Source: Escherichia phage vB_EcoM_ESCO9
Sequence record: OM386654.1
DNA length: 64,000 nt
Strand: one strand, 5' to 3'
Shown here one piece after another: positions 6,754 to 42,683 of the stretch (its first letter is position 1; every line of letters begins with the position of its first letter). A program made the translations under genes and the position numbers. Under the pieces are notes generated by a model. That model searched no databases. It worked only from the letters and a program-made list of their open reading frames with translations, and was not told the origin of the DNA.

Positions 6754-6760
6754 TTCATTA

Positions 6761-7576: not shown

Positions 7577-7611
7577 TAATTTAATACAGATTAAATAAGA
7601 AGGAGAAACAG

Positions 7612-14293: not shown

Positions 14294-14350
14294 GTAAAAC
14301 CATTTGGACTTTTTAGTCTAAAAATGCTAAAGTAATAATACGGAGGGAGT

Positions 14351-14914
14351 ATGATATTTCACATAACTCCCTATCTTTCTGGAGATATTGGAAAAGGTAT
14401 CAATGACACAATAAGTGTCTTACCAGAAGATAGTTGGATTTGCCTAAGAGACATTGATACAATGTTTCTTCTTCCAGAACAACCTGCTTGGCTGGAATCA
14501 ATTGTCCGTTCAAATCCTGATTTTGATGTTCTTGGTGCATCTTGTAACAGATTGGGATCAACATATCAATTATTTAATAATGAAAGAAGTGAAGATCCGA
14601 ATATATTACACCACATTGAGATTGCAAAAAGAGCACATCTAGAATGGGGAAACTCAATAGAGGAAGTACCTACAGATGCTATCTTAGCAGGATTCTTTCT
14701 TCTCTTTCGTAAGAGTCTGTGGAATGAAATTCCTTTTGAGGAAAGATCAATACAGTTTGATATAATTTTCTCTAAAGCATTGCACGCTAACAATAAAAGG
14801 CTAGGTTTACTACGTGGGTTATATTTATTTCACACATACCGTTTAGGTAATGATGATCCTAGAAAAGCTGTTTCACACCTTTTACATTGTCAAGACATGA
14901 ATAAAATTATTTAA
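14351..14914 (+). CDS. Hypothetical protein, possibly glycosyltransferase-related
   Basis: 187-aa ORF with RBS GGAGGGAG directly upstream of three GT-like genes; no firm motif. Confidence 0.35.
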   Translation: MIFHITPYLSGDIGKGINDTISVLPEDSWICLRDIDTMFLLPEQPAWLESIVRSNPDFDVLGASCNRLGSTYQLFNNERSEDPNILHHIEIAKRAHLEWGNSIEEVPTDAILAGFFLLFRKSLWNEIPFEERSIQFDIIFSKALHANNKRLGLLRGLYLFHTYRLGNDDPRKAVSHLLHCQDMNKII

Positions 14915-14923
14915 GGAGTTATT

Positions 14924-15610
14924 TTGGAAAATACAAAAATTGGTGTTGGTGTTATTACTGTAGGTAAGCGTCCTCTTAAAGATTATCTTGTGACTGATCC
15001 TAGTGCTACTTTTGTTGTACAGTATGATCGGGAACGAAAAGGTGTTGCATATGCTCGTAATGAACTGATGAAAAAGTTTTATGATGAAGGATATGATTAC
15101 TGGTTTATTTTTGATGATGATTGCTATCCTGTTGTTCAAGGTTGGGAAACATATTTTGTAAAACAGGCGAAGGAAAATGGTTGGGATTTCTTTGGTATGC
15201 CTGAATACTTTAAAGATAAAGTAAAAGGTATTGAAGGGGAAGTGGTTATTTGGGAGCTAGGAATGTGCCAGTTTGGTATGTATTCCCGTGCAGTTATTGA
15301 GAAAGCTGGCTATTTCCGCTCATACACCCACGGCTATGGGTATGAAGATGCAGAGTGGATTCATCGCGTCCCACTGGCAGGTTTGAACCGAGGTATTCAA
15401 GGCGTACCATGTCCTATTCGAATTATGGCGTTTATCCATCCTGATGATGTATTTGGAGACAATCCTTTACCTTTTGCGAATCTGTCAAAAGAAGAGAAAG
15501 AACAGGGGATTGGTGTAAACTGGGAACAATATAAACAATCCCTGGAGGATCTTCGCAATGGTAAAACTTTTATCTCTTATGAGGAGGCTCAAAAATATGG
15601 TAAATCCTAA
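14924..15610 (+). CDS. Putative glycosyltransferase (GT-A-like, DxD-type)
   Basis: Acidic motif FIFDDDCYP resembling DxD nucleotide-sugar-binding motif; TTG start with RBS AAGGAG. Confidence 0.4.
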   Translation: MENTKIGVGVITVGKRPLKDYLVTDPSATFVVQYDRERKGVAYARNELMKKFYDEGYDYWFIFDDDCYPVVQGWETYFVKQAKENGWDFFGMPEYFKDKVKGIEGEVVIWELGMCQFGMYSRAVIEKAGYFRSYTHGYGYEDAEWIHRVPLAGLNRGIQGVPCPIRIMAFIHPDDVFGDNPLPFANLSKEEKEQGIGVNWEQYKQSLEDLRNGKTFISYEEAQKYGKS

Positions 15611-16571
15611 TACTCCTGTACTTAAGTGTGATAATAAGTTAGGCAGTGGTTGTGATTACCATCGTATTGTAATGCCATTTGCTGGAAATACGTTTAAACC
15701 TAAGAAAGACGTTTTAGTTTTTAATAGAGTGTATTCTCGTGGATCAGACGAAGTTAAACGCCTGAAGGCACAAGGTGTTAAGATTATTGTTGATTTAGAT
15801 GATTTTTATTCGCTTAATCCTGAACATTATATGGCTGGCGTATTTACTAATCACTCAAAGACTATTGTAGAGATGATTAAGTTAGCAGATGTGGTTACTG
15901 TAACAACAGAATACCTAGCTTACAAAATTCGTCATTTAAATCGTAATGTTGTCGTTATTAGAAACGCACTACCTTACGACGAAGGTCAATTTACTTTGAC
16001 AAAAGACCGTTATTCTGACACGCCTATTATTTGGGCGGGAGGAGCAAGCCATGAACCTGATTTATCTCTTGTAGCTAATACATTTGATGATACGCTATTG
16101 ACAATTGCAGGGTATGAAGTGTATCCTTCTGCACCTGTTGGAAATAATAGTCAGTATCTAACTACTGCGGAGTGGGTTAAAGTAAAACGTAAAATTCCAA
16201 ATGCACAGTATAAACCAGCTATTAAAAATTTAGGTGAGTATATGTCTGTGTATGACGGTCACAGTATTGCAATTGCTCCTCTGGTAGATAATGACTTCAA
16301 CAACTGTAAAAGCAATTTGAAGATTTTGGAAGCAGGTGCAAAGGGTCTTCCTATTATCTGTTCTCCTGTGCTGCCGTACTTCAATCCGGTAGATGCAAAG
16401 GCTGTTATCTATGCAGACTCTAAAGCATCTTGGCATTATAAAGTTGTCAAGCTAATGAGGAACCCTAGATACACAGAAGATCGTGGTATGATGCTTGCAG
16501 AACACGTTCGTCTTAATTATAATCTTGCAGATGCTAATGAACTGCGTCGTCAAGTTATTGAAAGTCTTTAA
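15597..16571 (+). CDS. Putative GT-B fold glycosyltransferase (paralog 1)
   Basis: C-terminal motif KSNLKILEAGAKGLPIICSP resembles the GT-B E-x7-E/LEAxAxGxP sugar-donor motif; RBS GAGGAGG. Confidence 0.5.
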   Translation: MVNPNTPVLKCDNKLGSGCDYHRIVMPFAGNTFKPKKDVLVFNRVYSRGSDEVKRLKAQGVKIIVDLDDFYSLNPEHYMAGVFTNHSKTIVEMIKLADVVTVTTEYLAYKIRHLNRNVVVIRNALPYDEGQFTLTKDRYSDTPIIWAGGASHEPDLSLVANTFDDTLLTIAGYEVYPSAPVGNNSQYLTTAEWVKVKRKIPNAQYKPAIKNLGEYMSVYDGHSIAIAPLVDNDFNNCKSNLKILEAGAKGLPIICSPVLPYFNPVDAKAVIYADSKASWHYKVVKLMRNPRYTEDRGMMLAEHVRLNYNLADANELRRQVIESL

Positions 16572-16582
16572 TAAGGAGCTAT

Positions 16583-17527
16583 ATGCCTAATATTATTCTT
16601 GACACACGCGGAAATGAAAAGTATAGTGTATGTGATTTTCATAGAATCATTTTGCCATATAAACGCAAACTGACCATTAATCCTAAGCATAATATTTTTG
16701 TGTTCAATGGAGTACCAACACGTGGAAAGCCAGGTTTCCTGGCTCTTAAACAACTTGGGTTTAAATTGGTAATGGATCTGGATGATTCTTTAATTATTCC
16801 TGAAGGGCATATGCTTGAAGGATTATTTGAAAATCAAATCCGAGATGACCTAAAATGGTTCCTTGAAAGAAGTGATCTTGTAACTACAACAACTCCGGCA
16901 TTAAAGGTTGAATTAAGCCAATACAATGATAATGTACATATTGTGCCTAACGGACTACCTTTTGATGAAGGACAGTTTGTTCTTACTAAAGATCGTTATT
17001 CTAAAAGTCCACTGGTTTGGGCGGGAAGTGAAACACATAAACATGATTTAGCAATTCTTCCTGATTTTGGTAAAGATTTAACTTTATGTGGATTTCGTAG
17101 AGATCACGAAGAGTTAAGTAGTGCTCAATGGTTGCAAATTAAAGAAAATATTCAACCAGATTGTGTTTATGAAGGTATTCGTCCTTATGAGTGTTATATG
17201 GAAGCATACGATGGTCATCAAATCTCCATAGCTCCATTAGTAAATAATCATTTTAATAATGCCAAAAGTAATTTAAAAATTCTTGAAGCTGGTGCTAAAG
17301 GTTTGCCACTCGTTTGTTCGCCACGAGAGAACTATTATACTGAAGAATTTAAAGATCTAATCTTCTTTGCTGATTCAGTTAAAGAGTGGAAAGATATTGT
17401 AGAATACTTAATCGAATCCCCTGATGTTTGTATTGAGAAAGGATTGGCTCTTGCTAAGTATGTAAGAGATAACTACAATATTGATGATTTAAATGAAACC
17501 CGCAGACTGCTTATCGAGGATTTATAA
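16583..17527 (+). CDS. Putative GT-B fold glycosyltransferase (paralog 2)
   Basis: Clear paralog of 15597-16571 (shared FVFNGV/DLDD, LTKDRYS, DGHxISIAPLVNN.FNN.KSNLKILEAGAKGLP blocks); RBS AAGGAG. Confidence 0.5.
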   Translation: MPNIILDTRGNEKYSVCDFHRIILPYKRKLTINPKHNIFVFNGVPTRGKPGFLALKQLGFKLVMDLDDSLIIPEGHMLEGLFENQIRDDLKWFLERSDLVTTTTPALKVELSQYNDNVHIVPNGLPFDEGQFVLTKDRYSKSPLVWAGSETHKHDLAILPDFGKDLTLCGFRRDHEELSSAQWLQIKENIQPDCVYEGIRPYECYMEAYDGHQISIAPLVNNHFNNAKSNLKILEAGAKGLPLVCSPRENYYTEEFKDLIFFADSVKEWKDIVEYLIESPDVCIEKGLALAKYVRDNYNIDDLNETRRLLIEDL

Positions 17528-17796
17528 TGCACACTTTTGATTTTGAGTATAAACAAGATAATAAAGAACCTATTATTGTTGAAGTAGATTACTATTATGA
17601 AGAACCTAACCCTTTCTCACGAGAAAGTGATTGGGATTATTATGGTGGTCTTATTGTTGATGGTATTAGGTTTTATTCTGGTACAAAAGACCTTTTTGAT
17701 ATAGATATTTCCCCATCGGAAATTGTTTACCAATTTAAGAAACATATGGAAGATTTGGAAATGCAATATATTATGGAGACAAACGAATCATTTTAG
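17527..17796 (+). CDS. Hypothetical protein (89 aa)
   Basis: ATG overlapping previous stop. Confidence 0.4.
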   Translation: MHTFDFEYKQDNKEPIIVEVDYYYEEPNPFSRESDWDYYGGLIVDGIRFYSGTKDLFDIDISPSEIVYQFKKHMEDLEMQYIMETNESF

Positions 17797-17808
17797 TAGG
17801 AGAATCCT

Positions 17809-19581
17809 GTGTCTTATGTTGTAAATAAATATGGGTATAACATTGATCTAAGTCAAGAAGGACATACTGGGTGTCCTCGTTGTATGAAAGGAGGGCGTGA
17901 TCGATCACAAAACAATTTGATGGTATATGGCTTAGATGCCGATGAAGACCATCGAGGCGCACATTGTTTTTCTTGTGGCTTTACTATCCCTGATCAAAAA
18001 TGGTTAAATGCACACGGCGAAGAAATTGAAGAGGAGGATATCTTGGGTAGTGAGTTTAATCCAGAAGTACATGATAAACTAAAAGCCAGCACTGGAACTA
18101 ATCCAAAAGGTTATCGCGGTATTCGTGAAGATATCTCTAAGCCTTTCGGTGTACGTTATATGTACGATGAAGCTACTGGCGAAGTAATTTCAACACTATA
18201 CCCTACAACTAAAGATTACAATATTGCTGGGTATAAACAACGTATCGATCCAAAAGATTTCTCACATCCTATCGGTGAAACAGGAAAGGATTGTGATCTT
18301 TTTGGGGAGTTTAAATATCGTAACCACAGCGGTACTATTCTAATCGTTGGTGGTGAACACGATATGCTGGCTGCAACACAGATGCTAAAAGATTATAACA
18401 AGGGTGGTAAATATCCTGTTCCTGCTGTAGTATCTGGTACTTGTGGCGAAACATCTCTGCATAAGCAGCTTCAACATCGTTATAAATTCTTAGATCAATT
18501 TAAAAAGATTGTTCTATGTATGGATAATGATGAAGCTGGACGTGCAGCAGTTGAGAAATGTGTTAAAATCTTACCACGTAATAAAGTTTACGTGATGGAA
18601 CTAACGGATGTTAAAGATCCTAACCAGGCACTAGTAGAAGGAAAAATTGATCATTTTATTGATCGCTTTTTCAAAGCTAAACTGTACACACCTGCTGGTG
18701 TTTACGCTTCTAACGTACTATATGAAGCAGCCTTGGAATGCCTGGAAGCTAAAATGATCACCCTTCCTCCATTCATGCGTGTTGCTTCGAATATGTTAGG
18801 TGGAGGCTTGGTAGAAGAAGAAATTACTGTTATACTTGCAAAAACAAGTATCGGTAAGACACTGTTGGTTAACGAGATTACGAAACACATTATTCTTGCA
18901 CACCCAGAACATACTCTTGGTATTTTATCTTTGGAGGCAACGTATAAGAAGTATTCTCGTAACTTACTGTCTTCATTCTTGCATATCCCTCTTCACCGTA
19001 AAACGAAAGAAGAGAAGGAAAAGATTTTAAAAGATAATGAAGAAAAGATTCGTGATTTTTACGAACGAGAAGATGGAACACCACGTTTCTATGTTTGTGA
19101 TGATCGTGGAGCTAACGTAGATGTGATTAAAGAGAAGGTTCTGGAAATGATTATTTATTTCGGAGTAACCATTCTTGTTATCGACCCTTATTCTGACTTG
19201 CTTTCTGGTATGGACGTGTCACAACAAGAGGAACTTGCGACGTGGCTGAAACGCATTATGAAAGAGTATGCAATAACCATTGTTGTAATTTCACACGTTA
19301 AAAAGTCTTCTAACAATAGTAATGAACATATTGTAGAAGATGATGCAATGGGTAGTAGCTTCCTTGCTAAAGGTGCTGGTATCACAATTGCGCTGGAGCG
19401 TGATAAACAAGCTGAAGATCCTATGGAACGTAACCGCACATATTGCTACATTCTAAAGAACCGTGAGTTCTCAGAGACTGGTGCAGCAGGTAGTTTCTTC
19501 TATGAGATTAAAACAGCTACACTTCACGATTACGATCAATACACAAGTAACCCAGAGAATATTCCTGATGGTTCTTATTAA
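17809..19581 (+). CDS. DNA primase-helicase (Zn-ribbon/TOPRIM primase fused to DnaB-like helicase, T7 gp4-type)
   Basis: N-terminal CPRC...CFSCGF zinc ribbon; central acidic TOPRIM-like region; C-terminal P-loop LAKTSIGKT and Walker B LVIDPYSD; GTG start with RBS AGGAG. Confidence 0.7.
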   Translation: MSYVVNKYGYNIDLSQEGHTGCPRCMKGGRDRSQNNLMVYGLDADEDHRGAHCFSCGFTIPDQKWLNAHGEEIEEEDILGSEFNPEVHDKLKASTGTNPKGYRGIREDISKPFGVRYMYDEATGEVISTLYPTTKDYNIAGYKQRIDPKDFSHPIGETGKDCDLFGEFKYRNHSGTILIVGGEHDMLAATQMLKDYNKGGKYPVPAVVSGTCGETSLHKQLQHRYKFLDQFKKIVLCMDNDEAGRAAVEKCVKILPRNKVYVMELTDVKDPNQALVEGKIDHFIDRFFKAKLYTPAGVYASNVLYEAALECLEAKMITLPPFMRVASNMLGGGLVEEEITVILAKTSIGKTLLVNEITKHIILAHPEHTLGILSLEATYKKYSRNLLSSFLHIPLHRKTKEEKEKILKDNEEKIRDFYEREDGTPRFYVCDDRGANVDVIKEKVLEMIIYFGVTILVIDPYSDLLSGMDVSQQEELATWLKRIMKEYAITIVVISHVKKSSNNSNEHIVEDDAMGSSFLAKGAGITIALERDKQAEDPMERNRTYCYILKNREFSETGAAGSFFYEIKTATLHDYDQYTSNPENIPDGSY

Positions 19582-25349: not shown

Positions 25350-26081
25350 ATGAGCGAATTTGTAAACAACACCGCATTAAACTACCTGCAAACCCTCGAA
25401 AGCAATAGTGTAGATTTGATTCTTACTGACCCACCATATGCTATTTCTCGTGACACAAATTTTCAGTCTGGAGAGCCTACTGGAAAAGATACGGATAGAT
25501 TCCGTGTATCTTACAACTTCGGTGATTGGGATGTTGTAGATATTCCTTACTTTAAAGAAGTATTCAAAGAAGCCTACAGGGTGCTTAGAAAAGGTGGTAC
25601 TTGCATAGTTTGGTATGATATCTGGAAGATCCAGGAACTACGTGAAATCCTTGAACCGCTTGGTTTTCGTATGTTCCGTACCATCGAATGGATTAAAACA
25701 AACCCTGTACCCATCAACAGTGGTGTTAACTACCTTAGTAACGCTAAAGAGATGGCTATTGTTTGTGTTAAAGGTTCGAAACCAACCTTCAATGCTTCCT
25801 ACCATAAGGGTGTGTTTGAGTATCCTATCTATCAAGGAGCAGATCGTTTTCATCCAACACAAAAACACTTGACTTTGTTTTGTGACCTTATTAATATACA
25901 CACCAACGAAGGAGATGTAGTCTTAGACTTCTTCTCTGGAAGTGCAACAACACAAGTTGCGGCACTTTTAACAGGTAGAGAATACTTAGGCTGTGAAGCC
26001 GATGTAAATATTTTTAAGCAAGCGGAGGAACGACTAAATGAGTACACTGAACAGCAAAATCACCCTGAAAGCACTGATTAA
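25350..26081 (+). CDS. DNA methyltransferase, beta-class amino-MTase (N6-adenine or N4-cytosine)
   Basis: Motif IV DPPY (LILTDPPYAI) precedes motif I-like VLDFFSGSATT; no adjacent restriction endonuclease recognised. Confidence 0.75.
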   Translation: MSEFVNNTALNYLQTLESNSVDLILTDPPYAISRDTNFQSGEPTGKDTDRFRVSYNFGDWDVVDIPYFKEVFKEAYRVLRKGGTCIVWYDIWKIQELREILEPLGFRMFRTIEWIKTNPVPINSGVNYLSNAKEMAIVCVKGSKPTFNASYHKGVFEYPIYQGADRFHPTQKHLTLFCDLINIHTNEGDVVLDFFSGSATTQVAALLTGREYLGCEADVNIFKQAEERLNEYTEQQNHPESTD

Positions 26082-26469
26082 CAATGGTATGAACCTGGAC
26101 TCTGGTCTGTCTCCAAAGATTTCTATGGCACGACTGGAACAAGTTACTGGTCTTCGTCAAGTAAGTAATGGCGGTAAGATTATTCGTGATGACGCTGTAC
26201 CTTTTAATAAGTTTCAGATTGAACGTCATTACGATCCTGTAACTGCAAGCCTCACTGGTGTAACTTTCTCAGGTTATCGTACTGCCGGATACCAGCGTAA
26301 AGTTGTAGCTGAACGTATTAAGAGTCGCAAACAGAAAATTGCGACATTGAAGAAACTGGTAGAGAAAGATGTTTCAGAACTTCTTAACCTGTATGAAACT
26401 CTTGAGACAAAAGGTGAAGATCATAAACTCTTCTCTAAAGAAGATGTAAGCGTAATTTTCACTGATTAA
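26038..26469 (+). CDS. Hypothetical protein (143 aa)
   Basis: ATG overlapping MTase 3' end; RBS GGAGGAACG. Confidence 0.4.
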   Translation: MSTLNSKITLKALINNGMNLDSGLSPKISMARLEQVTGLRQVSNGGKIIRDDAVPFNKFQIERHYDPVTASLTGVTFSGYRTAGYQRKVVAERIKSRKQKIATLKKLVEKDVSELLNLYETLETKGEDHKLFSKEDVSVIFTD

Positions 26470-26473
26470 GATA

Positions 26474-26506
26474 AAAGAAAAGGAGCCTAATGGCTCCTTT
26501 TTGTTT
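26474..26506. terminator. Bidirectional intrinsic terminator at convergent junction (A-run, AAGGAGCC-TAAT-GGCTCCTT, T-run)
   Basis: Perfect 8-bp stem flanked by A-tract and T-tract between last plus-strand gene and first minus-strand gene. Confidence 0.6.
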
Positions 26507-28391
26507 ATGTAACATTGACTGTAAATCTGACAAGAGGTGATAACACGTCATTATCAGCATCATAGTGTGCAACATCAAACACTGTTGTACCTGCTGCAAA
26601 TCCATATTGTTCAACCTGATCTGCATAAGTAAATGTGTAAGTGTTAGTATCCAGGGTTTGTTCTGTAAGAATTGCTGCTGTGAGGACGTTTACATTTCGG
26701 AAGTAATGTTTAGTATATCCTGCTGGTTCCCAAGAGACAATTGCATCTTGGTTAGCTTGTCTTACAGCGGCTCCTCCTGTTGGAACAGACATATCAACCC
26801 AAACAGGTGACGCTGATGTTAAGTCTGTACCGTCTGCTGCCGATTTAGCAAGTTTTGTAGCTGCTGTTTGATATACAGAAGAAATATAATGGATACGACC
26901 ATCAATACCTTCTTCATAAACATAACCACTGTAACGTTCAGCACCATCTACCCAAGAACCAATTATAACATCATCACGTGCTGTAGAGATGGTTCTTTGT
27001 ACATTTCTGTACTTCTGCCAATCCACACCATTAACTTCTACACCATATAAATAAGAACGTCCTAGGATCTGCCAAACAATTTTTGCTTGAGAAGCAGGAA
27101 CTATTGTACGCATCTTATCAAAGATAGCTATCGTAGCATCATGGTAACGTGTAGTGTTACTGTACCTACCTGCAACAGTCGAAGATGCTGATACAGCATC
27201 ATTTTCACCTTGTCCCCAAATAATTGCTTTAACCTTACTTGCATAAGGTGTGACTTTAGTGATAAAGTTAGTTAAGCATGGCCCATCTGCTGTGTTATCC
27301 AGATCATACCAGTAGTTGTCTGGTGTTCCTGTTCCGGCTTTATCATCTGCATATTTATCTGCTGCTGATGATCCAGAAGCTGCATTTAACGGAAGAACTT
27401 CAGCATTTGCTAAACCACGTTGCGTAGCATATGCATTACGGGCTGTTGTGCTACTCATTGCTGCTTTATTTGCACCAGATAGTTCTGTAAAGTGTGCATT
27501 TACGTTATCTTGTCCAGCAAAGACAATAACTTCTTTAATGAATGAATCATCTGTAGCTATTGAGCTATTAAAGATAACGGCTGCTGCTTTGGTGCTCTTA
27601 ACGCTAATTTTAAGGTATGTTGGAGCAAACCCATAAAGAGGAATAGAGTCAGAGATATCAAAGTAGGCGTAAGTATTTGTGGTTGTTGTAGTCCACTGGA
27701 CACTATTATCACTTAAATCTAATACTTCTACAGTATAAGTATCACCATCTAGCGGATCAGTTACATCCCAAGCAACACGAACGTCTCCATAACTGTTTGC
27801 CACGGCTGTTACATTAGAAATAACAGGAATAGCATTAACACCTAAATAAGAACTATCAGAGGCCACAACTGTTCCTTGATACGTTGCAGTACAACCTATA
27901 CGGCAATTACCATCTTTAAGAGCAGTTATTAATCCTGTAGGGCTTACAGTAGCTACTTCTGGATCTGTTGTGGTGTACGTAATTACCATGTCTGGAAGAT
28001 CTTTAGCACCTTCTGGACTGATTGTAGCAACCAACTGTTGAGTAGTGCCTACATCCATAGCTGATAGACTTTCAGTGTACACGCTTAATTCTGAAGCATA
28101 ACCACCAGATTGATCAGTTAAGACAGCACCTAAATTATTTTTAGCTGTCATTATTGCATCAAAACCACCTTCGGCAACAAACTCCATCATACCACTATTA
28201 TCTATAACCATTTTGGTATTATCTGAAGATGAAAAAGCTATATCAAATAACGCACCATCTTCCGGTGAAACTGTGTATGTCAGTTGCTTTTTACTACCAA
28301 CTATTGCAATACCAATAGAGGAAGTGGTTATAGATGTAGCTGTTACTACTGAAGCTGATGTTGTTGACATAAATAAAGGAATAGGATACAT
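26505..28391 (-). CDS. Tail fiber/structural protein with Ig-like (Big_2-type) domain and possible SGNH/SASA-type carbohydrate esterase domain
   Basis: TYTTTDPEVATVSPTGLITALKDGNCRIGCTATYQG resembles Big_2; AIIWGQGENDA resembles sialate-O-acetylesterase-type motif; position at start of late structural block. Confidence 0.45.
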   Translation of the reverse strand: MYPIPLFMSTTSASVVTATSITTSSIGIAIVGSKKQLTYTVSPEDGALFDIAFSSSDNTKMVIDNSGMMEFVAEGGFDAIMTAKNNLGAVLTDQSGGYASELSVYTESLSAMDVGTTQQLVATISPEGAKDLPDMVITYTTTDPEVATVSPTGLITALKDGNCRIGCTATYQGTVVASDSSYLGVNAIPVISNVTAVANSYGDVRVAWDVTDPLDGDTYTVEVLDLSDNSVQWTTTTTNTYAYFDISDSIPLYGFAPTYLKISVKSTKAAAVIFNSSIATDDSFIKEVIVFAGQDNVNAHFTELSGANKAAMSSTTARNAYATQRGLANAEVLPLNAASGSSAADKYADDKAGTGTPDNYWYDLDNTADGPCLTNFITKVTPYASKVKAIIWGQGENDAVSASSTVAGRYSNTTRYHDATIAIFDKMRTIVPASQAKIVWQILGRSYLYGVEVNGVDWQKYRNVQRTISTARDDVIIGSWVDGAERYSGYVYEEGIDGRIHYISSVYQTAATKLAKSAADGTDLTSASPVWVDMSVPTGGAAVRQANQDAIVSWEPAGYTKHYFRNVNVLTAAILTEQTLDTNTYTFTYADQVEQYGFAAGTTVFDVAHYDADNDVLSPLVRFTVNVT

Positions 28392-28410
28392 TTAATCTCC
28401 TTAAATAATA

Positions 28411-28426
28411 AGCCCCCGAAGGGGCT
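28411..28426. other. Stem-loop AGCCCC-CGAA-GGGGCT between tail fiber genes
   Basis: Perfect 6-bp inverted repeat; T-run on plus side. Confidence 0.35.
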
Positions 28427-28430
28427 TTGA

Positions 28431-30392
28431 TTATGTGCGTTTAGCAACAATAGCATCTACGTAATCGCCAACACCACAATATGTTAGTTGTAGTATTGTT
28501 ACTCCGTTAGGATCTGTATTAATATCACTAGAACCAATTACTTTGTAAGATGGATCTAAAGTAACAGTACGACCTCCAGTGGCATCTTGGATAAGATAAA
28601 CTATTGCAGAGAATGGTTTAGGTTTTGTGCTATCTTCGACACCAGGCCATGCTTTTATAGTAGAGTTACCAGTAAGATTCAACACATTCATGTTATGTGT
28701 TCCTGGAGGTGTCCAGTCACCTGTAACAGAGTTGTTGGTGTATGCTGTAACCTCTATAAAATTAGTTGTTACTTTTGTTGGAACTATATCTTGACCATCT
28801 ACAGAACTAGTGAGTTCTTCCCATGCTCCATCTTTACGAGCATAGATCTTACCGTCACTAGGTGCATCTGTGATGCTAGGCAGTGTACCTTGAGAAGTCC
28901 AGGCAGTTGCAGATGTTTTTAAGAACACCTCACCAGTGGAGATATTAAAGGCATAATCACCTTGTTTACCATCACTAGAAATTGGATCTGTTGTTTTAAC
29001 AATCCAAGTTGCACCGTCTGTACCGTTAGTACCAGCGTCACCTTTTTCACCCTTATCACCTTTCAAACTACCCATATCTACATATTCAGCAGTTTGAGTT
29101 TGTTCATCATAGGTGTAAATGTAAAGATGACCTGTATCTTCCGTCAGATAAGCATCACCGTAATTGGCTGTAGGAGGAAGTGCACTTGCAGACGCAACGT
29201 GTCCTTTTGCAGTGATTGGAGTACCAGCTAAACGACCAACATTTGTCCACTGTGTGGCTCCTTGCAACCAAACCCAAAGTTCATTATTGATCAGATAACC
29301 ATCACCATCTTCTCCAGTTTGTGGTAGTTCAGAAGTGTCAGTCAGAATATCAATAATTGTCAACCCTGCACCAGTTGGCCCCGTCAAGCCTTGTATACCC
29401 TGCTCACCTTGATCACCCTTGTCTCCCTTATCACCTTTTTCTCCTTTCAGAGAGGCAATATATTCATCAATAGTACCAACGTTACCAGCATTTAACCAGA
29501 CTTGATAAGCAGAATCACCAGTGTTACCCTTATCTCCTTTGTCGCCTTTATCTCCTTTTGGCCCCACTATAGCGCCCATATTGATCCATTCTACACCGTT
29601 TGACACGTATAGATATGTACCAATACTCCATGCTTGAGATGTGTTTCCAGGAGATGCAGAAGGAAGATCTGAAACAGAATTAGCTGCACCTTGGTAATCA
29701 AAACCATTAGCATTATTACCTGGTACACCTTGTGGCCCCTCTGGGCCAGGTTCCCCTTTATCACCTTTAATTGAAGCAAGATAATCTAGTTCTGTACCTT
29801 CATTTCCTGCTGCAAGCCATACTTCATAAGCAGATTTACCTTCTGGCCCCTGTGAGTTTACTTTTCTCCAAGCAGTGCCATCCCAAGCATACATATTCTC
29901 GCCTACAATCCATGCGTCACCTGCATTGTTTCCAGTTGTAGGTAATTGGTTGGTATTAGACAGCGTTCCTAATAGCTTTAATGGAGCACCTGGATCGCCT
30001 TTTAAAGAAGCCAACCACTCTGCCTCAGTACCTTGGAAACCATTGTCTACGGCAATCTGGTAAGCTGATTTACCAGCTTCTGGAATGGACTCTCTAAGAT
30101 CTTCAATTTCAGCTTCAATAGCATCTAATTCTGATTCTATTTGAGCAATGTCATCTGCATTACCCACATTTTTCCAAGCTGTATCTGAAATCCCTCCAGT
30201 AGATGTAGGAGTAGAGTTAGCAGGTACAACTTTAGGTAGAGAACCTTTCCACTGATAGTAGTTACCGTCAGTTTCAAAGAGCAATGCTTCACGAGCATCT
30301 CTTAAGGTAAAACCACTTGCAAAACTTCTACGCTTTCTATAGCGAGACTCTACCATGTCTGCAATGGCACTATTTGGACGTGTTAAAATCAC
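28431..30392 (-). CDS. Tail fiber protein with collagen-like Gly-X-Y repeats
   Basis: Multiple GxY tracts (GPKGDKGDKGDKG, KGEKGDKGDKGDQGEQGIQGLTGPTG, KGDKGEKGDAGTNG) and a thrice-repeated SAYxVW...LASxKG module. Confidence 0.6.
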   Translation of the reverse strand: MILTRPNSAIADMVESRYRKRRSFASGFTLRDAREALLFETDGNYYQWKGSLPKVVPANSTPTSTGGISDTAWKNVGNADDIAQIESELDAIEAEIEDLRESIPEAGKSAYQIAVDNGFQGTEAEWLASLKGDPGAPLKLLGTLSNTNQLPTTGNNAGDAWIVGENMYAWDGTAWRKVNSQGPEGKSAYEVWLAAGNEGTELDYLASIKGDKGEPGPEGPQGVPGNNANGFDYQGAANSVSDLPSASPGNTSQAWSIGTYLYVSNGVEWINMGAIVGPKGDKGDKGDKGNTGDSAYQVWLNAGNVGTIDEYIASLKGEKGDKGDKGDQGEQGIQGLTGPTGAGLTIIDILTDTSELPQTGEDGDGYLINNELWVWLQGATQWTNVGRLAGTPITAKGHVASASALPPTANYGDAYLTEDTGHLYIYTYDEQTQTAEYVDMGSLKGDKGEKGDAGTNGTDGATWIVKTTDPISSDGKQGDYAFNISTGEVFLKTSATAWTSQGTLPSITDAPSDGKIYARKDGAWEELTSSVDGQDIVPTKVTTNFIEVTAYTNNSVTGDWTPPGTHNMNVLNLTGNSTIKAWPGVEDSTKPKPFSAIVYLIQDATGGRTVTLDPSYKVIGSSDINTDPNGVTILQLTYCGVGDYVDAIVAKRT

Positions 30393-30433: not shown

Positions 30434-32848
30434 TTAAGCATTATTGACAGTAACAAAAGTAACAGGGTTCAGAGCTTTAATTTGTGTATTCTCTGCTGTA
30501 GGTGTTACAATTGGATCTGCAATATCTATTGTGTACAAACTATTTGTCACATATGTAGCACGTGCTATAGTTGTCACAAGATCGCCGCCATTTGCACCTG
30601 CACCTGGAATAACAATCTTAGTACCTGCTGCTTTAGCGTAGCCATTACTAGCCCAGTTTAAAGCATTAGACTGTAGATAGGTTTGACCTGTAACAGTTGC
30701 TTTTATTTTCTCGTTGGCACTAAAGAAAGCACCACCTACTGTAACAACATGTTTTTTACCGCTTGCACAATGAATAACTGTTCCAGTAGGGAATTCACGC
30801 CCACCTGGGAATTCATCATAAGCTGTAAAATATTGTTCAGAGATAGTAGTTAAAACTGGCCCACGATGACCTGTTCCATCAACAGCAGTTGGAACACCAA
30901 AGTTATTTCCAACCTGATCGCAACGATCCGTGTAGATTTTAGCAAAAGAAACTGTTGTTTCATCTCCGCTAAGTGCTGTACATCCTACCCACTTCATATA
31001 CGTGAATTGGCTGCGAGTATAGAAACCGCCACCACTTCCTTCTCCGCTTCCGTGTTGACCAATAAAGTCAATACTACGGCAACGAATATTATTAAAGGTA
31101 GAGCTAGATGGTAGCCCACGCCATTTAAAAACATTACAATTGATATTACTAACAATTGTAGAGTTTTCCCAGTCATCTGATCCAGATGTTGCAATCTCAA
31201 TTGAAGATTCTGGAATATCCAAATTCTTAATTGTAAAGTTAATTGGTGGCCCCGCATATCTTCCACTGTTAACACCCCAGTCAATAAAGACCATGCGTGT
31301 TGAAACAGACGGATCATTAAGCAGATAACCAGTTAAACCATCAACTTCAAAATCTTGGCATCCGTATAATGCAACACCACAAGTAGTTAAACCTGTACCT
31401 GTTGAAACTGCTGTGTTAGGATAAACTTCATTATCACGTATTGTGAAGTTTTTACCCATTTCAACGTGTAAACATTGACGGCAATTGTAAACCCTATTCC
31501 CAACGATACTGAAATTACGTACATATTGTGAATCAGGAACATCAACACCATATGGGCCACTACCTGCTACACCAATACCAATACCCCAGTTTGCACCTTG
31601 TCCAGAAGCATCTACGTTAGCAATGTGGTTATTCTCGATAATCAAACCTTCAGTGTAGTGTTTTTGAACTACGTTAAGTTCAATAGCATCACCTTTAATA
31701 TCGTGAATATAGTTGTTAGAGTAACGCCCGTAGGTCATTACTTCTCCAGTACCTTGTTGCAGGATCGCATATTTACAACCATACATTTCGTTGTAACTGA
31801 AGTCCAACGTACCTTCACTTGTCATTGCTTGCATTAAGAATGCTGCTGTAGATGTTGCGTTGGAGAAGATATTACGATAGAATCGGCAATCGCCACCTAA
31901 CATCTTAACATAACATTTTTCAAAGCGAACGTTTTCCATCCAACAGGACACAGTAGAAATCATTGTTCCACCGTTACCAGTGAATGTACCACCATACCAA
32001 CGAATACCAGACATAGCAATTGAGCTTGTGAATCTATAATTCTTATCTGCACGTACTTGAATGTTATTCGTGTTAGCGAAAGTAATGGTTTTTAAAATTG
32101 CTTGGGTATCATCGGTAACTCCATCACCAATTGCACCAAACTGCTCAGGCGTTACAAAGTATTGAGCTTGTAACAGGTTGCCTCCAGATGGAAGACCAAC
32201 CATTGCTGCACCAGTGGTAGATGACAAAAGGTTTTTCTCTACGTAAGAAGTAGAGGCTGTTGTTTTACCAATAAAAGCAAACAATTTGTTAGGTAGACCA
32301 GTAGACGGATCTAAACCTAATGGTTCTGCCAGAATAATTTTACTATCTTTGATAGTAAATGCTTCACCTTGAATCTGAATTACACCGTTAATGGTGACAA
32401 TAGCATTATCAAAGATATAAGGAGGACTGATTTCTGTTTCATATCCTGTAGCACCTTTAAAATACCAAGGATACACATCTGAAGCTAACTGTTCAGTTTT
32501 AAGAGCGTACAGAGTCCAGTTACTATCTCCTACAGGTGTACCCTGCATAGGTACAGGGTTAGCAGTAGTGGCAGATGGGGCATAATAGTATCCACTCAAG
32601 ATACCGTTTTCAAAATAACGTAACTGGTTAAATACAGTTTCAGTTGATCCTGCTGACCAAGCAACAGGACTCTTAAAGAAGAAGTTATCAACAAGTGCTT
32701 TACGCAGTGTAGGTATTAAACCTGTTTCGGTTTCTACAGTTGCTGTAGCATCCCCATTAATAACATCATGCATCTGGTTAGACGAGAATATAACCAGATC
32801 AACACCTTGTTCTAGTGTCGTAGCAGGATATGTTGGAAAATTCGCCAT
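30434..32848 (-). CDS. Tailspike-like protein, probable right-handed beta-helix (pectate-lyase fold) domain
   Basis: 804 aa; repetitive N/G/T-rich segments (NNYIHDIKGDAIELN, VGNRVYNC) typical of parallel beta-helix repeats. Confidence 0.5.
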   Translation of the reverse strand: MANFPTYPATTLEQGVDLVIFSSNQMHDVINGDATATVETETGLIPTLRKALVDNFFFKSPVAWSAGSTETVFNQLRYFENGILSGYYYAPSATTANPVPMQGTPVGDSNWTLYALKTEQLASDVYPWYFKGATGYETEISPPYIFDNAIVTINGVIQIQGEAFTIKDSKIILAEPLGLDPSTGLPNKLFAFIGKTTASTSYVEKNLLSSTTGAAMVGLPSGGNLLQAQYFVTPEQFGAIGDGVTDDTQAILKTITFANTNNIQVRADKNYRFTSSIAMSGIRWYGGTFTGNGGTMISTVSCWMENVRFEKCYVKMLGGDCRFYRNIFSNATSTAAFLMQAMTSEGTLDFSYNEMYGCKYAILQQGTGEVMTYGRYSNNYIHDIKGDAIELNVVQKHYTEGLIIENNHIANVDASGQGANWGIGIGVAGSGPYGVDVPDSQYVRNFSIVGNRVYNCRQCLHVEMGKNFTIRDNEVYPNTAVSTGTGLTTCGVALYGCQDFEVDGLTGYLLNDPSVSTRMVFIDWGVNSGRYAGPPINFTIKNLDIPESSIEIATSGSDDWENSTIVSNINCNVFKWRGLPSSSTFNNIRCRSIDFIGQHGSGEGSGGGFYTRSQFTYMKWVGCTALSGDETTVSFAKIYTDRCDQVGNNFGVPTAVDGTGHRGPVLTTISEQYFTAYDEFPGGREFPTGTVIHCASGKKHVVTVGGAFFSANEKIKATVTGQTYLQSNALNWASNGYAKAAGTKIVIPGAGANGGDLVTTIARATYVTNSLYTIDIADPIVTPTAENTQIKALNPVTFVTVNNA

Positions 32849-37638: not shown

Positions 37639-39798
37639 CTATATATAAAATTTTTGTGTTGTTACTAAATCTTCTCCAGATTTAGTGGCTAATGTAATTC
37701 CACTTATGGTGGCAATCGTAACATTTACCTGTTTAAGAGTGATATCTTGCAAATAGCAATTCAAAGGCACATTACCCATATAAAAAACTTGGGATTTTGA
37801 ATTAAGAACAGTTATTGAATCATGCATTATTTGTGGATAAGCCCATATGTATTGATATAAACCAACAAACTTCTGGTCATTCAATACAATATTACCTATA
37901 ATCATTTTCCACAAATATGTCCTATAGTTTGATTCAGGATCAAAGCCATATAATGGTGCTAGAGTTGCATCTGGAACAAACCCTGCAAGATAATGTATCT
38001 TATCATAACTAAAACCTAGTTGCTCATTAGGTATTGTGATAGCGTCAAAAGATCTTTCCATCTTACCTTCCAACAACCAATCATAACATTCTGAACAATA
38101 AAAATCAAAGTTTTCTGGGATATAATAATCTTTAGGGAAGTTAACAAATTCCATCATACCGTTACCTAAGATGGATGGTACAAATGGTAACAATGTAACT
38201 TTTGCCCCAGGATATGCTAATCTAGTATCTGTTGCAAATTTAGCAACACGCAGTCCTAATGTTTTAGATAGGAATGCATAATATTCATCATATGGTGTAC
38301 CAGTTTTATAATTCTTAACTGTACCAACATCTTGTGCATATAATCCAGTTTCATTATTAAATGCAACTTTGGTTGTATAATCATAAATACACGGTAGATT
38401 GGTAGCTGTATTATACCACCACCACGGTTCACCAACCTGAATAATAACCGGAAGATCATTAGCAGCGGATATAGAAGCTATCTTATTTATTACACCTTGT
38501 AAATAATTCATCCCTTCATCAATTGAAGGAGATAAAACATAACTTGGTGGCTCATAACCTGTAGCAGCCAGATCATCATTCCAAGTATGTTGTACCCATT
38601 CTACAGGACACACTGTACTCATAAGTTCAAAACTTAAGGAGTTCATTACTGTGTAGCCCATAGCTTTTGCATTAGCGTGGAAGTTATCAAACCAGGCTTC
38701 TGTTGCTGGGTTTAAATATTCTGTTCTGTTCAAAGCCCATTTATTAGAGCCAGCGTCCCAACTAAATTGATAATAATGTGACATACCATTATAGTGGTTA
38801 ATCATATCCCTATAACCTAATCTGTAGGTGTTAGAAATAACTCGCTCTGGGGTAAGGTTATACATATCATCATAAGATGTACACATTCTTATGGTGTGTG
38901 CTGGAACATTTAAATTACCCATATTCATCATACTATAACCCGTATCAGGTTCCAGTATGGTAAACTTAAAGGAAAGATCCTCATTGTCTACAGGAATAAT
39001 ATCTTCAATTTCTTGATACCTTGTGGAGATCAAGGAGAAGAACATATTATCTATCTGTGTAGTGTCAACAACAATATCATTTTCTGGCCCAGATTTTAAA
39101 TTTGAGAAATCTAATTTTATTGTTGCTGTTTTACCATCCTCTGAAACTTCTTCTGCATAAAAGTTTAGAGATACATAATGAACTGTTTCATCCTTCAGTG
39201 TCACTGTTAAGGATGGCAATAATTTTTCTTCTTTTAATCCAGGAACACCTTGACTAAGTTCCATTTTAAACCAAAGTTTCTCTTTACTTAAGTCAGAATG
39301 TTCTTGGTAGCCTAATCCTTTGTGATCATATTTATCGTAAGTTGACCAAATAATCCCAGCAAGACCAGCCACTGTCCTATTAACCATTCTTGCTGTGAAA
39401 GAATCACCATTAGAGATAATAGAACAACTTTCTGTTGCTTGAGAATCTATTGTCCAAAACTTAGGATCAAACATTCTAGACTTCACAACAGGCCAAGTTA
39501 GCGGGGTTGTATTCGATTGATCAGTCGTAATAACACAACGAATTTCTTCATTGATCATCATGTTATTTTGACTTATGCTAGTAATCTCAAGAGTAAAATA
39601 AAGATCTAAAGAGTTTGCCGGACGTTCATATACATCAACCACTACAGTAGCAGAATCTGCATCAGAAGGGAACGTTACTGTTCCCTGTTTAGCTACATAA
39701 TCTCTACCAGCGACCGCCGTTCCATCGACGGTCTTATAGCTGAATGAACTGGCATTTACTCTCGTATTTCGAGTTACAGTAAAAATAGCCTGTTTCAT
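37639..39798 (-). CDS. Tail/baseplate protein with N-terminal Calx-beta-like domain
   Basis: FSYKTVDGTAVAGRDYVAKQGTVTFPSDADSATVVVDV resembles Calx-beta motif. Confidence 0.45.
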   Translation of the reverse strand: MKQAIFTVTRNTRVNASSFSYKTVDGTAVAGRDYVAKQGTVTFPSDADSATVVVDVYERPANSLDLYFTLEITSISQNNMMINEEIRCVITTDQSNTTPLTWPVVKSRMFDPKFWTIDSQATESCSIISNGDSFTARMVNRTVAGLAGIIWSTYDKYDHKGLGYQEHSDLSKEKLWFKMELSQGVPGLKEEKLLPSLTVTLKDETVHYVSLNFYAEEVSEDGKTATIKLDFSNLKSGPENDIVVDTTQIDNMFFSLISTRYQEIEDIIPVDNEDLSFKFTILEPDTGYSMMNMGNLNVPAHTIRMCTSYDDMYNLTPERVISNTYRLGYRDMINHYNGMSHYYQFSWDAGSNKWALNRTEYLNPATEAWFDNFHANAKAMGYTVMNSLSFELMSTVCPVEWVQHTWNDDLAATGYEPPSYVLSPSIDEGMNYLQGVINKIASISAANDLPVIIQVGEPWWWYNTATNLPCIYDYTTKVAFNNETGLYAQDVGTVKNYKTGTPYDEYYAFLSKTLGLRVAKFATDTRLAYPGAKVTLLPFVPSILGNGMMEFVNFPKDYYIPENFDFYCSECYDWLLEGKMERSFDAITIPNEQLGFSYDKIHYLAGFVPDATLAPLYGFDPESNYRTYLWKMIIGNIVLNDQKFVGLYQYIWAYPQIMHDSITVLNSKSQVFYMGNVPLNCYLQDITLKQVNVTIATISGITLATKSGEDLVTTQKFYI

Positions 39799-39806: not shown

Positions 39807-42683
39807 TTATTTGGTTACATCAACACTAATATCATTCATAGTTAGAACAGTTAGTGTTGGTATGTTACTATTATCCAAAATTGGTAAAGCGTTTTGAGGG
39901 TTTAGTTTACGATACAAGGCATATAAACCAAAACCACGTAATAGTTCTCCAGCATGGAAACCAAAGAACATTCCGTTATCTGAATCTGGGCGTGGTGCAA
40001 CACTCCAGCAACCATTCATCGGATGGTTAGGGGAAAGCACAATATAGTTTTGCTGAATCAGATCAAAACATCTGTCTGCTACAATACCAATGTTTGGAAT
40101 TTGTGAATCATAACCTGCCAAGCCCATGATTGAACAACCAGCCATAAACAGTGCAGACATATGACTAGTAAAGTCATCAATAGGTGCAAGAACTGTACCA
40201 TCTGGGTTAAAGATAGTTGGTGTTCTTCCATCATTATTGTCTTGGAACCATTTAAGGTAGTTGATCCAATTTTTACAAACAGTTACTAGTTTTTCAGGAG
40301 GTGTTTCTCCTCTTTGTACAAGTTCGTATACAGTATGACAAGCACAGTAGAATGCACGAGCTTCATAACCATCCCACGCTTTTTCATTCCAGTGTTTCAT
40401 TGTAAACGTATTAGGTTCACCGTATTTTCTTGCATCCCAACGATCCCACACATATGCTTGTGCCATAGGCCCAGGCATCACAGGATCAAACGTGTTATAA
40501 AACCACATTTGAGCATCATACAAGAAATCAATACTGTTGTTTAAACGTGTCCAATCAATATCCCTACCTGCGAAACAGTATAAGGAAGGATACTGGTATC
40601 CTGGGTATGGAATACCACGCCATCCATCGTATAATGCAGTGTTTGGGTCACTGATATTAGAGAATGGAATTATTCCTGGTGTGTAATTAAGACTATTTAA
40701 CTTATAGTCAATAATAGTACAATCACCTAACTTAGCAGTATGAGGACTTGAAGCCTGTACAGTAATACGGAAGTACATGGTATAATCATCACCAGAAGAT
40801 GACGAATATCTTTCAGGTACATCGTTAATACAATAGAAATCTATTGTTCCTGTTAAACCATTGACAGGAGCCGTATCAAGAACTAAATTTACCTGATCTA
40901 CAGCAGTAAGATTTATTGCTGAAGGTTTAGGATCTGTTTCTGGATGATTAGGCTGGTAAGCACTTAACTTAAAAGCAGAGGCTGATAAAGTCTTCGTACT
41001 CCATGCCCCTTGCGTTTTAGGCAGCATAGCCCACCATCTCCAACCTTGATCATCCGTGATAGTCATGTTAAAGTCATCTTCATATGTTCTATATGTAATA
41101 GACTTAACATTAGCTTTTGATGTAGGAGTTAACCAAAAACCAACAGTAACACCACCATCCGTATCCATTGATGCAGTAACAATCTGGTCATTATTAGTTC
41201 CAGCAATACCTGTTACATACTTATATTGTACCACAGTATTGTCACCCCAGTCAACAATAATTCGCGGATCTGCGATAATATATGTTCCACCACTAGGAGG
41301 GGTACTTCTCATAAAGCTGGATAGTGGAATATCCATGCTTGTCATATTAGCTGTACCTAGTGGTAAGCCACAGCGGTAAGTTACTGTGTTATTTTCATCT
41401 TTGGTCTTACTTAATTCCAACTCTGGACGGAAAAGAATACCATGTCCTGCGTCATCTACACCTTGAAACTGGACTCGTAACTTAGAGTTCTGATCAACTT
41501 TAAACCAAATGGCTTGCTGTTCTAATGTTGTTTGAGCAGCAACATCTTGTCTAATAACAATATAGCCTAAAGTATCTCTTGAATATTTAGGTATTGCTGT
41601 AGATGGATACGAATAATCGTAAGAGATGCCATCTGTAAACGGGATAGTTGCATATGTAGACTTACGGAAGAATTTATCAAACATATCAATGTTTGAGTAA
41701 TCTTGACACACTAACAGTGAAGACTGCCAGCATAGCCAATATTTTCTTTCTCCTGTAATTTGGTACATCAGGTAATTAGCATCACACCACCAAGTTTCAG
41801 CATCTGACGCATTATCCTGAAAGCCCATTTCTACCGGAACGTTAACTGGTCTGTTATGCCACATAGTGTTACGCTCCATTAAATAACCACCGTGTTCAAC
41901 AGGGTTACAAGTCGCGTAGTTAAATTTATATGTACCGTTTACAGAAGTATTTTTTAGTTGAACTGTTCCGTATTGAGATGTTGGAAAACCTTCTTCTAAG
42001 ATATTCCCATCCCAGTCAACTTTACGTCCTAGACGATCAATGATCCAATCAACATCCCATTGATCTCCCTTCTTAGACCAATCTGTTGTACCATCTGCAT
42101 TAACAGCATACACTGTAGCGTTTACAGAGTTCCATCCTAGATTACCATTAAAAGCAAACCATGCTTTGTCAAGGTATTCTCCCCAATGAGGAGCACCATG
42201 AGGAATAACTGTTCTGCCGTTAGTCCACGTCATTAAGCTACCCTTAAAACCTCCGTGTGTAGGGTAGCCATCATCTGTAAGAGGATAGTGCGCAAGACGT
42301 GGTTCTTTACCGTTAATAATCCAGTTAGGGCGATATTTTGCTGGCGGATCTGGGATAGGTTGACCACCAAAGAAGTAATCTATATAGGCTTGCCAATATT
42401 TTTTAGCAGAGTCTAAATACTTTGTATCGCCGGAAGCCAGGTATGCATAAGCGCAACCAAGAATAAGCACGGATTGACCTTCTGTTGTAGCATCCCCGTT
42501 TGGTTGCCCTTCTTGAGCAGTCCAGTTTATAAAGTGTCTGTTATTAGCTAGAACGTTTTGTGGGTTTAATACATAGTGTTGCACTGTAGGATCTACAGTT
42601 AAACCTGTATTACGATCTAAGAACTGAATATGTCCATCGATCAGTTGAAAAACATTGTCAATTCTGTGCTTAATTCTTGACAT
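39807..42683 (-). CDS. Large tail/baseplate-associated protein (958 aa), possible carbohydrate-active domain
   Basis: Size and position; aromatic-rich segments; no definitive motif. Confidence 0.45.
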   Translation of the reverse strand: MSRIKHRIDNVFQLIDGHIQFLDRNTGLTVDPTVQHYVLNPQNVLANNRHFINWTAQEGQPNGDATTEGQSVLILGCAYAYLASGDTKYLDSAKKYWQAYIDYFFGGQPIPDPPAKYRPNWIINGKEPRLAHYPLTDDGYPTHGGFKGSLMTWTNGRTVIPHGAPHWGEYLDKAWFAFNGNLGWNSVNATVYAVNADGTTDWSKKGDQWDVDWIIDRLGRKVDWDGNILEEGFPTSQYGTVQLKNTSVNGTYKFNYATCNPVEHGGYLMERNTMWHNRPVNVPVEMGFQDNASDAETWWCDANYLMYQITGERKYWLCWQSSLLVCQDYSNIDMFDKFFRKSTYATIPFTDGISYDYSYPSTAIPKYSRDTLGYIVIRQDVAAQTTLEQQAIWFKVDQNSKLRVQFQGVDDAGHGILFRPELELSKTKDENNTVTYRCGLPLGTANMTSMDIPLSSFMRSTPPSGGTYIIADPRIIVDWGDNTVVQYKYVTGIAGTNNDQIVTASMDTDGGVTVGFWLTPTSKANVKSITYRTYEDDFNMTITDDQGWRWWAMLPKTQGAWSTKTLSASAFKLSAYQPNHPETDPKPSAINLTAVDQVNLVLDTAPVNGLTGTIDFYCINDVPERYSSSSGDDYTMYFRITVQASSPHTAKLGDCTIIDYKLNSLNYTPGIIPFSNISDPNTALYDGWRGIPYPGYQYPSLYCFAGRDIDWTRLNNSIDFLYDAQMWFYNTFDPVMPGPMAQAYVWDRWDARKYGEPNTFTMKHWNEKAWDGYEARAFYCACHTVYELVQRGETPPEKLVTVCKNWINYLKWFQDNNDGRTPTIFNPDGTVLAPIDDFTSHMSALFMAGCSIMGLAGYDSQIPNIGIVADRCFDLIQQNYIVLSPNHPMNGCWSVAPRPDSDNGMFFGFHAGELLRGFGLYALYRKLNPQNALPILDNSNIPTLTVLTMNDISVDVTK

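Follow-up and report, generated by a model that had tools for sequence, protein, structure and literature searches.

The 64,000-nt stretch of Escherichia phage vB_EcoM_ESCO9 DNA analysed here (sequence record OM386654.1; hereafter the window) comes from a phi92-like myovirus (Justusliebigvirus). Its minus strand carries an open reading frame (ORF) at positions 26505-28391 which encodes 628 amino acids (aa) followed by a TAA stop codon (26505-26507), and which is the orthologue of phi92 gp152 and gp153 taken together. An initial annotation, made from the sequence alone, had described the product as a tail fiber-like protein combining an Ig-like segment with a putative carbohydrate esterase domain, and had suggested that it is a deacetylating tail enzyme. 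We found that the esterase fold is present but that the nucleophile is missing. The reading frame is not a chance one, because its whole length matched PHROG 32204 ("tail protein"; E = 0) and it showed 90-99% nucleotide identity to this gene in 55 phage records, including 99.4% to Escherichia phage muut.

In gene order the ORF comes after the colanidase tailspike gp150 and the fibre gp151 (phi92 names). It had been called the first protein of the late block; in fact it closes the minus-strand late block as its 3'-most gene, with terminators on both sides. The upstream signal is a terminator-like hairpin on the minus strand at 28410-28427 (AAGCCCCTTCGGGGGCTT, then a T-rich tail) that separates the ORF from the gp151-like fibre gene, and a terminator is annotated at the same place in phage phAPEC8. 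After the hairpin comes the ribosome-binding site of the ORF, AAGGAG, which precedes the ATG by 6 nt. Expression of this last gene by read-through past the hairpin may be lower. Downstream, a bidirectional intrinsic terminator (26477-26502) is common to the ORF and the convergent plus-strand gene at 26038-26469.

The protein reads as a string of Ig, FN3 and SGNH beads, all encoded on the minus strand. Residues 1-21 (MYPIPLFMSTTSASVV...; 28329-28391) form an N-terminal peptide also found in phAPEC8 gp086 (MFPIPIF...) and phage TH18 (MYPIPCF...), and this could be a virion-attachment segment. Two Big_2 Ig-like domains follow (aa ~22-187; 27831-28328), which share 62% identity with their counterparts in phAPEC8 gp086; here the initial annotation was borne out, as Pfam PF02368 matched in two stretches with E 2.3e-12 and 47.1 bits against a cut-off of 22.8. 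The first FN3-like domain, FN3a (aa ~190-279; 27555-27824), aligns with gp65 of phage N4 from residue 619, before the second SGNH-like domain of gp65. In an 84%-identical relative, P0003, the FN3a counterpart (aa 189-268) appeared as a separate stretch matching profile A1, presumably its FN3b part. An SGNH-fold domain of the SASA type (aa ~280-530; 26802-27554) and a C-terminal FN3 domain, FN3b (aa ~535-628; 26508-26789), complete the protein. Nothing in this layout indicates a trimeric fibre, so the description as tail fiber-like did not stand: no signal for Tail_spike_N, beta-helix, collagen or coiled coil was found in the ORF, in contrast to the neighbouring genes at 28431-30392 and 30434-32848.

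Relatives of the distal region were collected with a HMMER scan, which gave 81 clusters among 1.84 billion representatives; a word-indexed search with aa 270-628 gave two fragments. A family alignment of 27 sequences was used both for structure prediction with AlphaFold2 and for a family profile. Single-sequence prediction of the full protein reached a pLDDT of 33 and was discarded, and the model considered here covers aa 270-628 only. With the alignment, this region was predicted with a pLDDT of 94.6 and a pTM of 0.90. The top Foldseek match was N4 gp65 (9lc0_I; TM 0.80, E 1e-24), followed by CE20 and CE2 esterases, PatB and PAF-AH, and the C-terminal ~95 aa of the model were recognized as FN3. 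In a search of PDB sequences the family profile matched 2apj (E 0.0015) and 1zmb (E 0.0098), including the GQSNMAG block. On the ORF itself Pfam SASA (PF03629) remained below threshold (E 0.019 and 0.0088; 15-16 bits against a gathering score of 24.8), but 19 of the 27 relatives matched it at E <= 0.01, the best with E 6e-13, and SASA homology is therefore supported transitively. Model, Foldseek and profile thus agree on a three-layer alpha/beta/alpha SGNH fold, and to this extent the proposed esterase domain is real.

The active-site blocks of SGNH enzymes can be placed on this fold. In the model, strands 1, 2 and 3 span aa 287-293, 332-338 and 387-393, and the C-terminal end of each carries a block (I, II and III, respectively), the arrangement seen in canonical SGNH enzymes. 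The WGQGENDA motif, singled out in the initial annotation as resembling an SGNH active-site region, is indeed block III (aa 392-399; 27218-27195 on the minus strand), at the junction of strand 3 and the next helix. Its counterparts are YQGESD in 2APJ and HQGESD in 1ZMB (PMC10792757). Across the family alignment W392, G395 and D398 hardly vary, and G395, E396 and D398 are invariant in close relatives. A338-S-G340-S-S-A343 (27363-27380), directly after strand 2, is a candidate block II from motif-level alignment (compare EGGSSI in 1ZMB and SGGTAI in 2APJ). In the block V region, D497-G-R-I-H501-Y502 (26886-26903), the His is kept, three residues ahead of the last helix of the model; Asp497 stands at His-4, versus His-3 in the canonical DxxH, and the acid position is variable across the family.

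Block I is where the domain departs from an esterase. At the junction of strand 1 and helix 1, the ORF reads G293-Q-D295-N-V297 (27501-27515), with Asp (GAT, 27507-27509) where GQSNM has the Ser nucleophile. The alignment is ungapped, VFAGQ-D295-NVNAHF in the ORF against GGQSNAxGHF in relatives. Among 86 aligned related domains, the nucleophile column held Ser in 67, Asp in five and Ala in four, and Ser and His occurred together in 58. Of the five Asp cases, one is a truncated copy in P0017. The other four fall in one myoviral clade, made up of phage TH18, P0004 and, with two cluster representatives, the Justusliebigvirus group. The TH18 and P0004 proteins are 41-49% identical to the window protein and keep the Asp. 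Their branch also lacks the block I Gln (GGDN), and TH18 lacks the block V His as well (RIQY). These additional losses argue against a dependence of the Asp clade on catalysis.

Asp295 was also considered as a sequencing error or alignment artefact. The residue-295 codon is GAT in the window, in phage KMB37 and in two IMG/VR contigs, and the phi92 translation reads GQDN. This explanation was rejected, given the ungapped alignment, the presence of Asp in all five Justusliebigvirus copies examined and the two nucleotide substitutions that separate GAT from any Ser codon.

In a survey of 30 representative SGNH-like structures, block I carries Ser in all except the OSK domain of Oskar, a non-enzymatic RNA-binding domain, which has Asp (PMC10792757). 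OSK (5A4A) resembles the ORF in its SGNH-like fold, in the Asp at the nucleophile position (GDDFM) and, on our reading of the ORF, in being a binder and not an enzyme. It differs in that OSK has lost the whole triad and binds RNA, whereas the ORF keeps blocks II and III and the His and lies in a context of glycan recognition; there is no evolutionary link between the two beyond the superfamily. The CE20 enzymes, whose triad is unusual and water-mediated, still use the GQSNM Ser (PMC12313940). Since the block I Ser is replaced by Asp295 in a conserved clade, canonical serine-esterase activity seems unlikely here from the alignment, and the proposal of a deacetylating tail enzyme is not supported, the key catalytic residue being absent.

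The domain resembles the SASA or "putative acetylxylan esterase-like" SGNH hydrolases (PF03629; 1ZMB, 2APJ; NanS, 3PT5) in its GQxN, xGGSS-like and QGExD motifs and in the His before the last helix. Apart from Asp295 and its 16 bits against 24.8, it differs from them in the displacement of the block V Asp by one residue, in an insert with the motif NYW(Y/W)D...GP and in lying between the FN3 domains of a phage structural protein.

The substituted domain does not look like a relic. Compared with KMB37, the ratio of non-synonymous to synonymous divergence (dN/dS) of the SGNH domain was 0.10 (nine synonymous and three non-synonymous changes). Across close relatives of the Ser and Asp types, 25 positions are invariant, including G293, N296, H300, W361, G370, P371, W392, G395, E396, D398 and Y502, and the family-specific NYW(Y/W)D...GP motif is retained in the ORF. 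Sites that are conserved in the Ser-type proteins and altered in all Asp-type proteins include S295D, R372C and H508Q/K. Codons 372 (27276-27278, minus strand; in the conserved GPRL motif) and 508 (26868-26870, minus strand) encode Arg and His, respectively, in 10 of 12 Ser-type relatives. The changes at these two positions alongside S295D may represent a coordinated change of pocket charge. Such clade-specific changes suggest that the pocket has been remodelled, and the domain is apparently not decaying.

The origin of the distal region is indicated by its homology to N4 gp65, the sole strong PDB sequence match of the ORF (E 8.7e-24). By BLASTP, aa 192-613 are collinear with gp65 residues 619-1062, and aa 277-451 align with gp65 residues 428-603 at 30% identity; the profile match to the distal FN3/SGNH-like/FN3 module of the gp65 type reached E 2e-130. 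N4 gp65, a long-known receptor-binding protein that interacts with NfrA, is also the major non-contractile sheath subunit (PMC13434306). The two proteins (gp65: PDB 9LC0, 9YF4, 9YF5, 9YFT) share the FN3/SGNH-like/FN3 module and a similar block III (WGQGDQDA in gp65, WGQGENDA here). In contrast to gp65, the ORF has the Big_2 pair in place of NCTSP_N and the TIM barrel, and its phage has a contractile tail; a sheath around a short non-contractile tail is not the setting of this ORF in a phi92-like myovirus. The single SGNH domain of the ORF is complete, whereas of the two copies in gp65 the first is truncated and the second degenerate, and the D9-D10 domains of gp65, which hold the N4 tail plug, are lacking in the ORF.

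The proximal part of the gp65 architecture is encoded elsewhere in the window. A gp142-like ORF of 719 aa (37639-39798, minus strand), about 9 kb away, contains Calx-beta, NCTSP_N and TIM-barrel_NCTSP domains and a GMSHY motif at 38787-38773. At 55% identity it matched gp65 residues 377-416, a segment that immediately precedes the first SGNH-like domain there. In a Pfam scan, NCTSP_N (PF23844) and TIM-barrel_NCTSP (PF23845) were both found in this gene and neither was found in the ORF at 26505-28391. In other viruses, the two proteins are fused. In P0006, aa 156-741 matched the gp142-like ORF (37% identity, E 7e-122) and aa 782-1212 matched aa 193-624 of the ORF at 26505-28391 (40% identity, E 8e-80), and P0005, P0008, P0011 and P0014 showed the same collinear pattern. 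The distal halves of these five proteins are 35-40% identical to the ORF by BLASTP, and their Pfam architecture includes NCTSP_N and the TIM barrel, the same two domains as in the gp142-like ORF. The fused form extends beyond podoviruses, as the P0008 contig carries a contractile-sheath gene nearby. Stand-alone Ser-type versions also exist, such as P0007, located just before a lysis cassette. Judged by these collinear fusions, aa ~193-628 of the ORF (FN3-SGNH-FN3) are the detached distal half of a gp65-type receptor-binding architecture, onto whose N-terminus the Ig pair has been grafted.

A related arrangement was noticed in N4 itself. The first SGNH-like domain of gp65 (gene at 15044-19192; aa ~430-606) keeps the Ser in GESQ, contains WGQGDQDA and covers profile positions 10-181 only. 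The C-terminal third that it lacks, with the block V His (GQIHF), was matched by the N-terminus (aa 12-77) of the small sheath subunit gp64 (13758-15011). An artificial chimera of gp65 and gp64 gave one continuous match over positions 10-251 with 141.5 bits, compared with 110.5 and 18 for the parts. The N4 domain may thus be split between gp65 and gp64 and completed in trans.

On K-12, phi92-like phages require the NGR glycan pathway, comprising nfrA, nfrB and wecB (PMC8669472, PMC11984140). For these myoviruses, gp142 has been published as the candidate NGR-binding protein; its mark is the GMSHY motif, reported as an NGR-specific predictor (bioRxiv 10.64898/2026.04.02.716166). The ORF at 26505-28391 was considered as this published receptor-binding protein and rejected, as GMSHY and the "deacetylase-like" TIM barrel belong to the gene at 37639-39798.

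Comparison between phages showed that the gene is accessory and mosaic. The phi92 copy (NC_023693, 9001-10663) has a 226-nt deletion covering FN3a and a 2-nt insertion and is a pseudogene, which is why gp152 and gp153 are annotated separately; the gene is thus dispensable in phi92. KMB37 (OR525700, 6001-8820) and alia carry a 939-aa allele which is 94% identical over aa 1-628 and has an extra C-terminal domain of ~311 aa ending in ...FITGLKYYD; Pfam gave no match to this extra domain in the KMB37 allele. Between the window and KMB37, synonymous divergence (dS) was 1.15 in FN3b (26508-26789) and 0.05-0.08 in the rest of the gene, which indicates a recombination junction at the SGNH/FN3b boundary. 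In phAPEC8, gp086 (891 aa; 5714-8389) occupies the syntenic last position in the late cluster and shares the N-terminal peptide and the Ig pair. Unlike the ORF, it has an RCC1-like propeller and no SGNH domain, and ends in a C-terminal domain of ~300 aa of the KMB37 type. NGR-dependent Vequintavirus phages have no full-length homologue of the ORF. Since the gene is broken in phi92, has mosaic alleles and has no full-length Vequintavirus homologue, it is non-essential and is not "the" receptor-binding protein for NGR; its behaviour is that of an exchangeable accessory in host interaction.

We consider it somewhat more probable than its alternatives combined that the ORF encodes a virion accessory adhesin, with a pseudo-esterase glycan-binding module derived from receptor-binding proteins of the N4 gp65 type. 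The product would be a non-essential, probably tail-associated adhesin built of monomer-style beads (N-terminal peptide, two Big_2, FN3, SGNH, FN3), with the ancestral proximal half (NCTSP_N and TIM barrel) encoded separately in the gp142-like gene. The SGNH domain of this lineage has lost its nucleophile (Ser to Asp295) but keeps the fold, blocks II and III and the His under purifying selection, and the former active-site cleft would most likely serve reversible binding of a host surface glycan in place of deacetylation. The glycan could be an acetylated or amino-sugar polymer, with NGR, colanic acid and O-antigen as candidates, and binding to it might help initial adsorption alongside the neighbouring tailspikes.

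Several points weigh against this interpretation. Cryo-electron microscopy of phi92 assigns nothing to gp152 or gp153, and recent phi92 structures do not place them; the phi92 copy is broken, and phi92 virion structures therefore cannot show this protein. His501, Gln294 and block III are retained, which leaves room for an unconventional catalytic mechanism. Use of NGR does not need the gene, as shown by its absence from NGR-dependent Vequintavirus and its broken state in phi92. In addition, the dN/dS estimate for the SGNH domain is based on 12 substitutions only.

A bolder form of the adhesin reading is that the ORF and the gp142-like ORF are the two halves of a split receptor-binding protein of the gp65 type and jointly act as an NGR recognition device. 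The SGNH domain would then act as a "reader", a dead enzyme that recognizes an acetylated or de-N-acetylated sugar, its pocket remodelled by S295D, R372C and H508Q. We regard this as speculative and put its chances as low. The opposite proposal, that the ORF is the first SGNH-fold hydrolase with Asp in place of the Ser nucleophile, is less likely than such a reader.

A different possibility, and one we think unlikely, is that the protein is a purely structural decoration or spacer, like Hoc or the Ig domain of lambda gpV, and that its SGNH-like domain is inert and binds no ligand. The beads-on-a-string architecture of Ig and FN3 domains would fit this, as would the PHROG matches of the N-terminal region to "structural protein with Ig domain" and "major tail protein", the lambda V-like fold that the phi92 annotators noted for gp152, the dispensability of the gene in phi92 and the low expression suggested by the upstream terminator. 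However, the SGNH module stems from receptor-binding proteins, and its pocket motifs are still conserved with a dN/dS of about 0.1. The gene also lies at the end of a tailspike and fibre cluster, and its alleles swap distal domains (RCC1 propeller, extra C-terminal domain) and break at FN3b, which is typical of host-interaction proteins. If the protein is nevertheless an inert decoration, the finding is an ordinary one.

We judged it distinctly improbable that the protein is, as first proposed, an active receptor-modifying carbohydrate O-acetylesterase on the tail, which would need an unconventional mechanism, for example with Asp295 acting as nucleophile or as general base with His501. The SASA-type SGNH fold with blocks II and III and His501 kept, the conservation of Asp295 across clades 41-99% identical in a domain under purifying selection, and the unusual triad variants known in related CE20 enzymes (PMC12313940) all speak for such an enzyme. 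However, all characterised SGNH hydrolases in the structural survey use Ser and its lone Asp structure is non-enzymatic (PMC10792757), the CE20 variant still relies on Ser, and no compensating Ser is evident beside the motif. The Asp-carrying sister-clade proteins, moreover, do without the oxyanion Gln, and TH18 without the His. The trimeric SGNH esterase tailspikes of phages (G7C gp63.1, 4QNL; the Moo19/B2 tailspikes; Possum) have demonstrated esterase activity. They have a Ser-His-Asp site. The ORF is of another SGNH subfamily and differs from these tailspikes in lacking the Ser and any domain for trimerisation or of the spike type.

Least probable of all, in our view, is that the ORF binds the protein receptor NfrA, the NGR exporter, as N4 gp65 does, and acts in irreversible adsorption or triggering: its homology to gp65 spans residues 428-1062, gp65 binds NfrA (PMC13434306) and phi92-like phages lose infectivity on K-12 nfrA, nfrB and wecB mutants (PMC8669472), but the ORF lacks the terminal D9-D10 domains, triggering in the myovirus is assigned to fibre III (gp147) and a receptor in the lipopolysaccharide core (PMC8594841, PMC13450770), and neither phi92, with its broken copy, nor NGR-dependent Vequintavirus has an intact version of the gene.

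The adhesin reading bears on how these phages are annotated and used. Phages of the phi92 type are studied and used for their broad host range ("Swiss army knife" phages), and efforts to predict or engineer host range include the mapping of their receptor-binding proteins. Published NGR work points to gp142 only; the fusion proteins link the ORF to gp142 as two halves of one ancestral receptor-binding protein, and make the ORF a concrete candidate for NGR, colanic-acid or O-antigen binding. If the adhesin reading is true, the ORF would illustrate how, in nature, an enzyme domain of a phage has turned into a probable binding module, and would be informative for the evolution of receptor-binding modules and for binder design. 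Some orthologues in GenBank carry the labels "tail carbohydrate esterase" and, in KKE7M, "non-contractile tail sheath". Both are probably misleading, as the protein has an esterase fold with the nucleophile missing, and the sheath label is an annotation transfer that is silent on function. Justusliebigvirus genome papers make no mention of an esterase or of this gene, and we found no paper discussing an orthologue.

The suggestion in the initial annotation that the phage carries several receptor-binding or depolymerising proteins agrees with the surrounding genes, which encode, in addition to the gp142-like protein, a collagen-like fibre and a colanidase-like tailspike. The fibre gene (28431-30392, minus strand) has a Tail_spike_N N-terminus of the TSP1/gp66 type, collagen repeats and a weak fibritin-C-like segment, and the colanidase-type tailspike gene (30434-32848, minus strand) matched phrog_6117 with E 4.5e-270. 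Directly upstream of the gp142-like gene, a 958-aa ORF (39807-42683, minus strand) showed no Pfam match at E <= 0.01, and is probably a large tail fibre or spike component.

Some records in which the gene occurs carry other host names. In this gene, the "Campylobacter phage" A150, C3 and A110a records (MG065639, MG065656, MG065689; 146,366 bp) show 99% identity to phi92-like phages of E. coli, and their Campylobacter host labels look doubtful. The "Serratia phage KKP_3264" record (OK210077) is 97.7% identical in this gene.

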